Source: a virus (Duplodnaviria; Heunggongvirae; Uroviricota; Caudoviricetes). Taken from it: a DNA stretch of 25,667 bases. Of this stretch, positions 6,001-12,000 are shown piece by piece; position 1 is the stretch's first letter; each line of letters opens with the position of its first letter. The position numbers are program-made. The DNA is taken from IMG/VR virus record IMGVR_UViG_646311923_000009. The stretch is one strand, 5' to 3'.

Positions 6001-9000
6001 ACTTTCCAGAACCATACGAACTGCCCGTTGACGGACCTCGGGGGAAAAACGTGTATTTTTAGTCATCCTGTTTACCTCTTTCTCAGGGAGTTTAGTCTCC
6101 AGGATTCCCGGGGCGGTTCAGCCTCTAAAATTACGGGGCGATTTTCCGGCAACGGACCATCCCCTTCACATAACCCGGCAGTTTCTTTCATTTCATCTGC
6201 TGCAAGCACCTCATTTTTTGTTGGGGTGCTTTTTTTCAATTCAGTAACACAGCACTCCAGTTTTTCAATACGTGATTCAACATCATCTTTTTCTGACCGC
6301 AGTGTTGACGGCGGCATCTTCAGAGAACAAGTAATTCTTCCCGGTAGCTTTCCTTTGTAGGTTATCAACACATCCTGCGCCTCTAAAATTACGGGGCGAT
6401 TTTCCGGCAACGGACCATCCCCTTCACATAACCCGGCAGCAACATCCATGAAAAACTGCTTCGCCTGCTTTTTCGCCTCAGCTTCGTAAAACTCCAGCGT
6501 GGCACCTTCAGTACGGTCAAGACTAATCGCCACATCTGGCAACAACAGTGACGGATACCCACCAATTTCCAGTGCCACAGTAACAGTAATCTTATCCGGG
6601 TAATTATTTATCCCTTTAACAACCAGTTCGTATTTTTTCTTCATCGCTTTACTCTCCCCGCGCCGCCTTACGACGGTCCTCTCTGATTTTGAAATACAGG
6701 TTAGTCAGATATGTCAGCAGCCCAAACAGCAGACTCCCCAGCACGCCTATTGCCGCCCACTGAGACGGAGAGACTTTGTCCAGCAGCTGCAGGAACCAGT
6801 AGCCCGTTCCCACCGCTGACGTGGTGTATGACACACCTGTTGTGATTTTTTCCATCTGGTACATACCCCGTCTCTCGCAATCCGGAAGCTCACAACAACA
6901 GGAGGGGCATCAGCTCACACCGACAGCCCCTGCGCATGGTTACATCATCATTTCGCCGTCAGGCTGAGGCTCACTGCTACCGTCAGGCTGAGACACGACG
7001 CCATCTGAAACAGCACTGTCACCCGCGCCGTCTTCAGGCTCAGGAGCAGCCGGTCCCCCCAGCAGCTCATCCAGAATGGCATCCACTTCAGCATCAAGAC
7101 GCGCCTCAAGATTCTGGCGGAGTTGCTGTTTCAGTGCGCTTCTGACTTCTTCAGAGCGCAGGACGTCCTTCACTGCTTCAGCAGTGACCAGAGATTTTAT
7201 TTCTGACATGGGATTTTCTCGTTGAAAGGTGTTGTTAAGAAAGTTGCTACGAAATGAGAGGCTCTTCGGGTTTTGTTCCGGCTGACTGGCTGGCGCTGAT
7301 TTTTTCCGCCGCCGCGGCATCAATCTTTTTGCGTATATAGTTCCGGATAACCTTATACCCGCCACTTACCAGATATAACGTGCACACCACCGTGCAGAAA
7401 TACAATAAAATAAGCTGTACAAATCTCATTATCCCTCCCGGTTATTGATATGGTGTTGACATCGTTAATACCTGTTGGTTAAAAAAGTGTCCTGCATGTT
7501 TTGCTTTGGATATAACGACATTTGCCGCCGGTTCTGGCTCCTTGTTTTCCCTGCCCCGGCGGCCTTTTTTTCCTGCTTACGGGTTATTCACTTCCACTGT
7601 TATACTTTCAATCAGCACCGGATATGTCGCACCGCTAGTGATATCGGTCACGCGCAATTTGTCTGCCGTAAACGTGCCGACCGGTGACTGTGACAGCATG
7701 AACGGCGTCCCGTCCTTACCATCAATGACCGGCGTCACCTCAATACTGTTGTTACCGGCAAAACGGAAGCCCAGCGTATGCCATTCGTTATCAAATGCGC
7801 CGAATGACCCCAGCTTCGTGTTCTGACCAGCATTTCCCTTGTGGTACATCACATTAAGGTCTGTGGCATCGCTCTGTACGTAAAACGACGCCAGCAGGTT
7901 ATGACCGGCATTACCTTCCAGTGTGACGCCCTGAGGCAGTGAAGAAACCGGCCAGTACAGCGCCAGTGCGTACTGATTAGCTGTCAGTGTGCCATCAACT
8001 TTAAAACGACAACTGATAAGCCCGCCCTTCTCCAGCAGGTCTGCGCCATTACCGGCATCATGCTGCATAAACCACGAGGAACTTCCTGTCTGTTTGGTCC
8101 ACCTCAGCGCCTTACCTCCTGCAGCACCTGCATCATCAACTACCAATGCACGCCCTCCTTCAGCTCCCCATCCCTGCGGATTCAGTAAACCACCTGACTC
8201 TGTTGCACGGTAATAAAGCAGCGTTGTCACTGATTTCCCGTCCGTTGACGGTGTTGATGGTGTGTCCGGTGACGGCTTCTCATCCGGCGGCATCACAACC
8301 TGTTCCCCACCCACCAGTTCAGCCGTCCGTCCTGCATGGAGAAGAATCGCTGAGGCAAGACGGTCAGAAATAATCCCCCTGCGTGCCCATGAGCTGAAAT
8401 GGCTCGCACGGTCTGCTGACGTCCAGTTTGCCGACGTCCGGGAGGCCGCACCGTAATATCCTGATGCCGGAATATCCGGGTCTTCTTCCGGTTTGTTCGT
8501 CGGGACATTTGCTCCGTTCTCATCGGTCATGAACGGCACAAAGTGAATATTCTTTTCCGTTTTGTTTTTGTAACTGCCGTACACCGTCTGGTAAGTGGAT
8601 TCGCTCTTCTGCTTCCAGAAATAAGTTGTGTCTCCACATATCCAGGGAACACCGTCAGCAGAACCACCAGCGCACTGTCCCACCATATCTGCAAGGTCCG
8701 TACGATATTGTTCCACTACTTCTGTAAAACGGGCTGTGTGATTTGCTGGCGTTCCGTCAAAGTCAAATTCCCCCTGCATCCACACCACGGCAAGCAGCAC
8801 ATTTTTCGGGTTCTTTGCCAGCGCGGCTTTTGTACGACCGATGAGATCCTTATACAGCGGCCTGCCCACACCCCAGCGGGTAGAACTCTCTGAGGCACCG
8901 GTCACGTCACTGTATGTTCCATCTGCCCCGGTGGTGAAAGCTGAACCACCACGGCAGCACGGAACCAGAAGAATACCCGCATTCGCCGGTATAAACGGCA

Positions 9001-12000
9001 GCAGCTTTTTGGCAATATGCAGCCCCTGCCCCACGGTTCCGTACTGACCTTTCGACAGGTCAGCTTTCGGATGGTTAAGACGGCTCATGTCCTGTACATC
9101 ATGCAGACAGTGGTCTGCCGGAATAATGTCGTTATATTTACAGGGAGCGCCATCCGGCGTCACTGTGCTGCGACGAGCCAGTTGCTTTATACGCGGGTCA
9201 GGACGGTCATATGTCTGCGGCAGAGGAAGCCCCTCACAGTAAGCCATGCCGTTCGACTGCCCGGCCAGTGGAATAACGTAGTAATAATCTGGCTCCGTGG
9301 TGACCACTCCCGGATAGCCACCATCCCCCGTGCCGGGCACAACCACTGGCGTGGTCACATCCCCCTCCGCGGCAATCGCCTGCATCAGGGTATAAGGGGT
9401 TATGGCCACCGGACTACCAAACGGCTGCCAGCCCTCTTTCAGTTTGTGTGTCAGCTTTTCCGCAAGATCTGACGGCGACGCCGCCCTGACAACATCATAA
9501 TGTTTAATCGACATCGAATTTCTCCCGTGTACAGGAACAGAGTTAAAAAGCCGGAACCGGAATCAAATCACAGGATGACCATCTGCCAGTGGCTGGTCGT
9601 AAAAAAAAGGCCGCGCCATGCGCAGCCGGAAATAAAGGGATAACGATGATAGTTTGAGAAAAACAGAAATAACACTTTTGTGGCAAAGCATGGTGCCGGG
9701 TGCCTCCCGGTGAATTCAGTACCAGCACCTGAATCCGCGATTATCCCATATACCTGGTTGCTGATTGCCCCTCCGCACAGGGGGATTCACCATGCAGTAG
9801 TATTTTTAATAAACAGTAAACAAAAAAATCAAGCATTATGCAGGCTGTTTCTTTTTATCACCGGCCACAGCAATACCACAATGCCGCAGACCAGCCCCCA
9901 TCCGCCAGCACCGACATGATTCTGCTGGTGAAATCCACCATCACCACCAGAAACAGCAGGAGTGCAGCCACAGCCAGGCGCAGTTTTACCGTCACAGGTG
10001 ATTCTCCAGACGAAGCCCCAGAACACCGGCAATCTCTTCCAGCACCTTGCGCTCTTCCGGCTCAATTTCGCCGTCTGCCTCCGCAATGGCCACCGCCACA
10101 TCCAGCACATCTTCCGCTTCACGCGTATCGCGTTTCACATCCTCGATCTCACGTAACGCCGCACGACGACCAATTTTAAAGTTCGTATCCAGCTGACCGA
10201 TAATGGTTGCGCTAATCGCATTAATTTCTGACGTAAACGCGGACAGCGCTGGCTGATTACGCAGTACCTGTTCGATCTTCGCTTTCTAGGAAGCCTCACA
10301 TTCACCATTTGCACAGGCCACCAGGTATGCGGCGTTAATCACCGCCTGTGCCAGATCGCGTTTCTCAAACTTTCCTTTTTCCGGTTAACGTGACACACCA
10401 ATAACTCTTGTCGAAAAAGCCAGCAAGCTGAAAGACCGGTATTCACAACCACCAGCGCGTTTACTGTACTGGCGTGATTTCAGTCATAAAAAAACCCGCC
10501 TGGCGACGGGTGTAAAAAATCTTCTAACGTCAGGCATAAAACGCCCATCGTTAGGGCAAATTTACCACAGATTCGGGAAAAATCAACAAAGCTATCTGGT
10601 CACCTTTTTCAGTTGTTGTTCTGCCCATGCTTCTTCAATATCAAACTGCACCACCAGCGTATCGTAAAAACGTTTAACTGTTTTTTTCCATGTATCAAGA
10701 GATATGGCATCGGTTACATTACATATGGCATTAAATGCCTCCGTTGAAGGTAATCTTTCATAGCCACGACCACCACAACGCTGGCAGTCTCTGATAACAG
10801 GCATACCACGTTTTACCGACTCTTCACGATGAATGGCAACACCGCGCCCACGACAATCTTTACAGGCGGTGGAAACCTCCCCCTTCCCTCCACACTCCGG
10901 ACAGGCAACTTTTACCACCTCCCTGACTTTTTTCCATTCCTCCCAGTAAGACGGATACACGCCTTTTGTGCACTTTGCCCACACTGGCGGCTTACCATCC
11001 GGATACTGGATCTTGTTTGTAAAAACCTCGCTTTCAATAAATTTTTTTCCGTGACAACAGGGGCACTGTTTTTTGCTCGCCGCGCTACGGGCATAATCTT
11101 CAAACGCATACGAAGCCATAATACGCATCACTGCCGGTTTTATTTCTGCCGGGAGTTTTCTTAACGCCGCCACGCGATCACACCGACTGAGTGCATATTC
11201 TGTCAGCAATTCTGTTGCCCGCTCTCTGTCATTCATACTAATGCCCATTTTCCCAAGGAACGCAGAAAACCCCATCTCAGCCCAATTCTGTGTCATGCCC
11301 TGCGCGGCCATCACATCAGTGATACTCAGCGTATCTTTCGACGTTGAGGCCGATGCATCAGTCAGGCCGGGGGATTTTGGGGAGTAGTATTTCGGTAAAT
11401 CTTCCAGTTTCATTTTTTGACCTGCCCTTCAAGCATTATGGGGTAAATCTTCACCCCCAGACGTCCACCAGATACTGGCTGAGCACGAACGATATTGATT
11501 TCATCAAACTGCTCATCGTCCATTAGCAACCCCGCATGCGTCAGCGCATCCAGCGGCGCTTTCAGAATATTGTCCAGGTCACGGCGGCGCTTATCCGGTG
11601 GCTCGGCAATAATCTTTATCGCCAGCCTTCCGGACAGGCTTAATTTCAGCCGCTGCTGGCGAACAATAAGCGCCACAGCCCGGCGATAACGCTCACCGGC
11701 TTTTGATACAAAATATGTGCTGCCACGACGTCGCCAGTAGGTGTTCACCGTCGGCAGGTAAAGCAAAACAAACTCTATACGCATCAGTAACCTCTTTTAC
11801 CCGAGCACGCCGGTTGCAAAGGCGTGATCAAGAAAACGAAAAATTAAATCAACCTGGGAACCATGCTTTTCTTCGAACGCCAGCGGATCCGCATGAAGCT
11901 CGTTGTGATGCTCCCGACACAGCGGTAGCGTGAAAATATCGTGGGATTTTGTTCCCATTCCGCCCTGACCATGACCAATCAGATGATGAGGATCGTCCGC

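Follow-up and report, generated by a model that had tools for sequence, protein, structure and literature searches.

An intact nanS-p esterase gene in a decayed, stx-negative lambdoid prophage remnant

Prophage-borne sialate O-acetylesterases of the NanS-p type let enterohaemorrhagic and Shiga toxin-producing Escherichia coli (EHEC and STEC) use the O-acetylated sialic acids of gut mucus, and in phages that carry the Shiga toxin genes (Stx phages) they are co-regulated with the toxin. I consider here a gene of this kind in a stretch of viral DNA of 25,667 nucleotides (nt), the IMG/VR record IMGVR_UViG_646311923_000009, the whole of which is called the window. Its open reading frame at 7577-9514 is taken to be an intact NanS-p gene, likely a redundant contributor in a decayed prophage, a reading to which I give a probability of roughly 85%.

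The closest described systems are phages 933W (z1466/L0105, NP_049502.1) and phi24B (vb_24B_21, or gp84), whose NanS-p proteins, at 645 amino acids, have the length of the window protein and the same DUF1737-SASA-lectin architecture. The 933W protein, other alleles of strain EDL933 and those of O104:H4 are active esterases (PMC8065619; PMC10462455), and in Stx2a strains nanS-p transcription goes up by 1-2.4 logs with mitomycin C (PMC10462455). The gene occurs in non-Stx prophages too, and such copies support growth on 5-N-acetyl-9-O-acetylneuraminic acid (Neu5,9Ac2) in EDL933 and O104:H4 (PMC8065619; PMC10462455), so that a nanS-p gene in this kind of setting is already known from the literature. 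Prophage-borne genes of the family are told apart by their N- and C-terminal domains (PMC10462455). The active site has been described for the chromosomal enzyme NanS (YjhS; PDB 3PT5), where it consists of the blocks GQSNA (with Ser19), RGGSAF, MQGEFD and R-x-SHFS (with His301), a backbone carbonyl standing in place of the usual Asp (PMC10792757). The NanS-p proteins of Stx2a phages have the same blocks, including RASH/RSSH (PMC10462455).

The preliminary description had reported at this position a 645-residue SGNH/SASA protein with a GQSN motif and a DUF1737 N-terminus. The open reading frame is exactly as reported, Pfam and the motif agree, and the gene lies on the minus strand, a matter on which that description was silent. 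Its parts are the following.

7577-9514, minus strand: nanS-p coding sequence, 645 amino acids (ATG-start open reading frame; Pfam; PDB; exact database match)
9365-9505, minus strand: DUF1737 N-terminal domain, residues 4-50 (Pfam PF08410, E 3.3e-15; alignment to phi24B gp84)
8342-9298, minus strand: SASA/SGNH catalytic domain, residues 73-391 (PDB 3PT5 alignment, E 3.8e-118)
7583-8230, minus strand: C-terminal lectin-like jelly-roll domain, residues 429-644 (PDB 6YP6, the crystallised NanS-p C-terminal domain, E 9.3e-97)

A Shine-Dalgarno sequence, GGGAG, precedes the ATG by 8 nt. The protein is identical to BAI30503.1 of O103:H2 str. 12009 and to RefSeq WP_000023170.1, named 'SASA family carbohydrate esterase', and its N-terminus is not signal peptide-like. 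The two PDB matches (E 4e-118 and 9e-97) are far above chance, and Pfam adds SASA at residues 83-275 (E 1.3e-10) and DUF6645 (PF20350) at residues 494-611 (E 7e-71). NCBIfam gave no match to the protein, and in PHROGs it falls only in families of unknown function. As had been proposed, the top homologues are NanS (3PT5) and NanS-p (6YP6, 933W, phi24B), not unrelated hydrolases.

By the block definitions of PMC10792757 (3PT5) and PMC10462455 (NanS-p), all four NanS blocks are present and intact in the alignment: GQSNG at residues 85-89 (GQSN being 85-88), RGGSAF at 188-193, MQGEFD at 246-251 and RASHFS at 369-374. Motif correspondence with 3PT5 assigns Ser87 (codon 9254-9256) as the nucleophile and His372 (codon 8399-8401) as the base. 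In the C-terminal domain, four aromatics, Y515, Y520, Y545 and F615, align with Y510, Y515, Y540 and F611 of phi24B, which are proposed to form that domain's carbohydrate-binding site (PMC10462455), and all four are conserved. On sequence grounds the identification as NanS-p is secure. Chromosomal NanS shares the homologous catalytic domain and the same blocks (GQSN, RGGSAF, MQGEFD, R-x-SHFS). It is, however, a single-domain protein, and identity with it is ruled out by the three domains of the window protein and their setting in a prophage late region.

If the protein works as its relatives do, it would adopt an SGNH fold in which Ser87 of the GQSN block serves as nucleophile and His372 of the RASH block as base, with a backbone carbonyl in the role of the classical Asp, as in NanS. 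It would then take the O-acetyl groups off Neu5,9Ac2 and off the acetylated sialoglycans of mucin, and the product, N-acetylneuraminic acid (Neu5Ac), would be open to catabolism.

The window copy most likely has much company. Of 5,426 complete E. coli genomes, 1,167 contain the catalytic-domain DNA (median 5 copies per genome, maximum 13), and strain 2011C-4251 has 10 copies of nanS-p. A homologue appears in 351 phage records, almost all from Stx or other lambdoid phages. The identical protein is present on 47 contigs and in several serotypes. The copy in the window would thus most likely be one redundant contributor among about 10 paralogues. One allele of 2011C-4251 (L002:10577-12550) is otherwise identical but runs to 657 amino acids through a tandem duplication of 36 bp in linker 1, by which GDVTTPVVVPGT is repeated. 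The duplication (compared with window positions 9340-9375) falls directly after DUF1737, where cleavage has been proposed for the phi24B protein. It is confined to the allele of 2011C-4251; with Tandem Repeats Finder the window allele showed no repeat in the linker. Ratios of nonsynonymous to synonymous substitution (dN/dS) are 0.10-0.16 for the catalytic domain, 0.17-0.25 for the whole gene and 0.00-0.14 for DUF1737 among window-type alleles, values that are rough because synonymous sites are near saturation.

Aligned with gp84 of phi24B, the window protein shows very different conservation from one part to the next, around an overall identity of 74% to the 933W and phi24B proteins.

DUF1737 core: 79% identity
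Anchor loop: 20% identity, with a 3-residue deletion and the Tyr kept at position 41
Linker 1: 9% identity
Catalytic domain: 87% identity
Linker 2: 26% identity
C-terminal domain: 68% identity

The catalytic blocks are identical and the lectin-site aromatics conserved. In 933W and phi24B, as in the window, nanS-p lies upstream of DUF826-type small genes and a P21-type holin and has an STnc100-like element upstream. The window differs in that no stx or tRNA gene stands upstream, Q is a 273-residue PF03589 protein rather than Q933, the anchor loop and linkers have diverged with no SSP motifs left in the linkers, and the whole is a remnant without head genes. Other relatives are found in long-tailed lambdoid phages (434 CPT_434_71, YYZ-2008 gp42, Stx1a and Stx2c phages, and BP-4795, where the gene is called 'yjhS'), which have the window type of DUF1737 (66-81% identity over residues 1-80) and an overall identity of 56-76% to the window protein. 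Unlike the window, these phages are complete and have their lysis and head genes. In YYZ-2008 and 434 the protein is shorter, at 616 amino acids, and its C-terminal domain more divergent.

The genes around nanS-p follow one another on the minus strand in the order DUF968, RusA, Q, hairpins, TerB pseudogene, DUF3927, STnc100 small RNA (sRNA), terminator, nanS-p, DUF1378, DUF826 and holin.

10592-11413, minus strand: late antiterminator Q, 273 amino acids, PF03589 type (Pfam E 4.7e-50; RefSeq 'antitermination protein')
10494-10586, minus strand: candidate late promoter region (read by eye, not called by the scan)
9992-10354, minus strand: TerB-family pseudogene with an internal stop (RefSeq annotation; Pfam)
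9858-9995, minus strand: DUF3927 small membrane protein gene, between Q and the sRNA gene (RefSeq annotation; Pfam)
9655-9821, minus strand: STnc100/PasD-family sRNA gene, immediately upstream of nanS-p (Rfam RF02076; score 101.6 bits, gathering score 47, E 2e-21)
9609-9627, minus strand: strong intrinsic-terminator-like hairpin between the sRNA gene and nanS-p (8 pairs, 7 of them G-C, then T8; consensus scan)
7488-7572, plus strand: candidate convergent sRNA, possibly PasA/PasC-like (fold -27.5 kcal/mol, z -3.5)
7247-7429, minus strand: DUF1378 small conserved late-region gene (Pfam, E 5.8e-40)
6940-7209, minus strand: DUF826 small conserved late-region gene (Pfam, E 1.2e-34)
6649-6864, minus strand: class II (P21 S-type) holin (Pfam PF04971, E 3.6e-33)

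The place between Q and holin, which had been likened to that in Stx phages, is matched in 933W, phi24B, YYZ-2008 and phage 434, all of which share the synteny Q–nanS-p–holin with the window. Stx phages have stxAB in the interval from Q to the sRNA-like element. The absence of stx from the window, also stated at the outset, was borne out: tblastn with the A and B subunits of Stx1 and Stx2 gave no match at E<1. A search of the window for tRNA genes found none.

The sRNA gene and the terminator immediately upstream of nanS-p had gone unmentioned in the preliminary description. The STnc100 match spans the full-length Rfam model, and an STnc100-like element lies 5' of nanS-p in 65 of 80 related loci, as well as between stxB and nanS-p in 933W and phi24B. 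Its upstream position agrees with the arrangement PasD/STnc100-esterase-PasA/C-holin given in the 2026 Pas sRNA preprint. TerB, RusA and DUF1627, all of which are found in the window, are the 'PasA/PasC conserved genes' of that preprint. On the other side of nanS-p, a plus-strand RNA is possibly encoded, a candidate defined by its fold and by promoter-like and terminator-like features: a perfect TTGACA box (7456-7461) precedes it, and its hairpin and U7 end at the stop codon of nanS-p. The Pas sRNA preprint puts pasA some 2,170 bp away from pasD2, on the far side of the esterase gene, and the position of the candidate fits pasA/pasC. When 6500-10700 was compared with Rfam under permissive settings, no match to the PasA/PasC, AgvB or AsxR families came up. 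The annotation of phage 434 has the layout of the window, Q...DUF3927...terminator...nanS-p...convergent terminator...pinholin, with the opposite-strand terminator, annotated on the minus strand there, at the spot equivalent to the candidate RNA.

A promoter scan found no sigma-70-like site on the nanS-p strand between Q and nanS-p, the 95-nt leader included. The candidate late promoter, just after Q, consists of a -35 box TTGATT (10586-10581) and an extended -10 box TGgTAAATT (10567-10559), and it scores 8/12. Beyond it the scan found two terminator-like hairpins, at 10558-10542 and, a strong one, at 10511-10494. Because of the terminators at 10511-10494 and 9627-9609, nanS-p transcription should need Q-modified polymerase, an expectation in keeping with reports that nanS-p and stx2a are co-expressed in Stx phages (PMC10462455). 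Expression would accordingly depend on Q carrying transcription from the late promoter through two or more strong terminators, and release of the enzyme would depend on cell lysis.

Whether these requirements could be satisfied depends on the condition of the element. The window matches, with 100% identity, the prophage found at ydfJ in several STEC genomes (O103:H2, O45:H2, O121), and the element is a decayed, stx-negative lambdoid prophage remnant. No endolysin, spanin, terminase or head gene is present in the window. The sister strain FWSEC0007 keeps lysozyme, Rz, PerC and terminase fragments, and the approximately 9 kb that carry them are gone from the window. It would seem that the prophage at ydfJ lost its endolysin, its spanin and all of its morphogenesis genes to the activity of insertion sequences (IS). 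The features that bear on lysis and immunity are these.

6309-6644, minus strand: truncated ydfR, directly after the holin (annotation)
4811-6644, minus strand: region of the truncated ydfR and, following it, an IS3-family element (annotation; IS inverted repeats at 4811-4835 and 6096-6120)
18870-19277, plus strand: prophage repressor, 135 amino acids, helix-turn-helix (HTH) only (domain content)
18602-18829, minus strand: P22-Cro-like protein (immunity region)
18031-18582, minus strand: YdaT-family protein (immunity region)

An ALIL frameshift pseudoknot lies at 5669-5785 within the IS3-family element, and the junction of the element with ydfR is bordered by a direct repeat of 61 nt (6121-6181 = 6379-6439).

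Several of these observations weigh against a working role for the window copy. The IS cuts the late operon directly after the holin and the truncated ydfR, so the element cannot lyse the cell alone. The 135-residue repressor has no S24 peptidase domain, so that induction of the SOS type would not be expected to proceed in the classical way; its HTH-only makeup suggests that it is not cleavable by RecA. A strong terminator lies about 95 nt 5' of the nanS-p start codon, and the late promoter that should drive transcription through it, a weak one of the extended -10 kind, was picked out by eye. Selection on the window copy cannot be gauged, because the allele does not vary between strains. Finally, the esterase function of the window protein is attributed to it from close homology, activity having been measured on other alleles. 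Given the state of the remnant, induction-linked expression and lysis release cannot be assumed for the window copy. The preliminary description had spoken of expression upon prophage induction; this is documented for alleles of Stx phages (PMC10462455, PMC8065619) but need not carry over to a copy in an IS-truncated remnant with an HTH-only repressor. Activation and release of the window copy would come, if at all, from co-resident prophages.

Next to an esterase that serves the lysogen stands a second use for the same protein. It may be primarily a virion component, a capsid decoration anchored by DUF1737 and displaying the esterase, in which case the window copy would be an orphan or would be supplied in trans. 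Such a role is compatible with esterase activity, but as the primary one I consider it doubtful. The idea comes from phi24B, where gp84 is an abundant virion protein (2026 preprint). Its DUF1737 forms hexamers on the central hexons of the T=9 capsid, with Tyr42 as an anchoring 'tooth', and processing occurs behind about Gly54 and ahead of the C-terminal domain; SSP linker motifs are only proposed as the autoprocessing sites (2026 preprint). No other report of virion association of NanS-p beyond phi24B, a short-tailed phage, was found, and so the virion evidence amounts to one preprint on one such phage. In the window protein the DUF1737 core is largely conserved with respect to gp84 and a Tyr is retained in the loop SPVAITPYTLMQAI at position 41; the domain is of the window-type ('S') class. 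Against this, the anchor loop is poorly conserved and 3 residues shorter, and the SSP motifs are replaced in the alignment to phi24B (SISSP by DVTTP, PSSPS by PSTPS). The low dN/dS of DUF1737 also favors a capsid role in part: purifying selection this strong means that the domain clearly does something. As part of the mechanism proposed here, DUF1737 would be a conserved domain under purifying selection that serves as a capsid anchor in phi24B.

Comparison among phages bears on the same question. In the phage collection, residues 1-80 of the window protein match long-tailed lambdoid phages (434, YYZ-2008, Stx1a and Stx2c phages, 1717), and 933W-like short-tailed phages match residues 1-39 only. 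I sorted 80 viral-contig loci both by their DUF1737 class and by the head module that lies downstream.

933W-type DUF1737: phi24B-type head, 3; undetermined, 9
Window-type DUF1737: lambda-type head, 18; YYZ-type, 5; third type, 1; undetermined, 41
Other DUF1737: third-type head, 2; undetermined, 1

Counting head-typed loci only, phi24B-type heads accompany 3/3 of the 933W-type loci and 0/24 of the window-type loci, and searches of the phage collection with capsid proteins agree by phage class. DUF1737 class thus separates short-tailed from long-tailed carriers, as a capsid function would have it, although the split could reflect mere recombination lineages. Alleles 100% identical to that of the window adjoin three long-tailed head modules (L006, L007 and L013; L010 and L057; L009), which are unrelated to one another. 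Strict capsid specificity of the window-type DUF1737 was considered and rejected, since identical alleles pair with lambda-type, YYZ-type and third-type head modules. The same finding argues against specific co-evolution with any one capsid, and the pattern is in keeping with a gene moved about together with the Q-lysis module. The window itself offers no head genes with which the protein might be paired.

One locus in the comparison lacks the enzyme. Phage vB_EcoS-640R1 (L086:5986-6189) encodes a stand-alone DUF1737 protein of 67 amino acids in the same slot, between a Q of the 273-residue type and the holin, and this otherwise syntenic late region looks like an esterase-less version of the nanS-p locus.

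A broader form of the capsid idea may be put forward as speculation, and I think it quite improbable. The classes of anchor loop, the second half of DUF1737, would follow virion type, NanS-p would be a general, exchangeable decoration module by which many lambdoid virions show a mucus-active esterase, and copies in head-less remnants would be supplied in trans to the capsids of co-resident phages. One class would then go with 933W-like short-tailed T=9 phages and the class of the window with long-tailed lambdoid phages. The question touches also on the term moron, which the preliminary description applied to the gene. The label is debatable, as no promoter of its own was found by the scan, the T-run of the downstream hairpin is on the opposite strand, and the phi24B homologue is structural (2026 preprint). 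The comparisons neither confirm nor exclude a capsid role for the window-type N-terminal domain.

The intact gene might, on the other hand, be a silent relic, effectively never expressed or released and kept whole by recent decay or by gene conversion from paralogues. The defects of the prophage speak for this: the IS after the holin, the lost lysis and head genes, the pseudogenes (TerB, nleG7, ydfC, fimbrial), the HTH-only repressor, and the terminator directly upstream of a gene whose own promoter was not detected. With about 10 paralogues per genome, the window copy is besides dispensable. The open reading frame is nonetheless complete, with all catalytic residues kept, Q is intact, and the identical protein recurs on those 47 contigs and in several serotypes. 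Moreover, all tested prophage alleles of EDL933 and O104:H4 encode active esterases (PMC8065619), and growth on Neu5,9Ac2 was sustained by copies from non-stx prophages (PMC10462455). I therefore judge a silent relic to be unlikely and keep to the reading of an intact NanS-p gene that likely contributes redundantly. That the true substrate is instead an O-acetylated glycan of the bacterial surface (O-antigen or capsule), the enzyme aiding phage adsorption or superinfection control, is very improbable: the possibility was raised in a review and is there without experimental support (PMC8065619), and it would fit display on the virion, but the substrates of characterised NanS-p proteins are Neu5,9Ac2 and the O-acetylated sialic acids of mucin (PMC8065619), and the catalytic domain of the window protein is 87% identical to those of characterised enzymes.

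The remnant carries other cargo: a hokD/sok toxin-antitoxin locus (Rfam sok) at 13827-13976 on the minus strand, a gene for the Paa (AcfC-family) adhesin at 14168-14926 on the minus strand, and DicF RNA at 20920-20971 on the plus strand, together with dicB. Pseudogenes of nleG7 (near the ydfJ end), of ydfC and of the fimbrial type lie nearby. A 296-residue open reading frame at 3130-4020 on the minus strand (WP_001299329.1, hypothetical protein), beside a transposase fragment, had no Pfam match at E<=0.001.

For the general picture of NanS-p the window copy brings nothing new: the protein is catalogued, the family has been characterised biochemically and structurally, and tests have already been made of copies from non-Stx prophages. 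What value remains is contextual, in a fitness gene that survives in a heavily decayed prophage beside regulatory sRNAs. It also provides a small data point on the question raised in 2026, whether NanS-p is a fitness factor of the lysogen, a decoration protein of the virion, or both.

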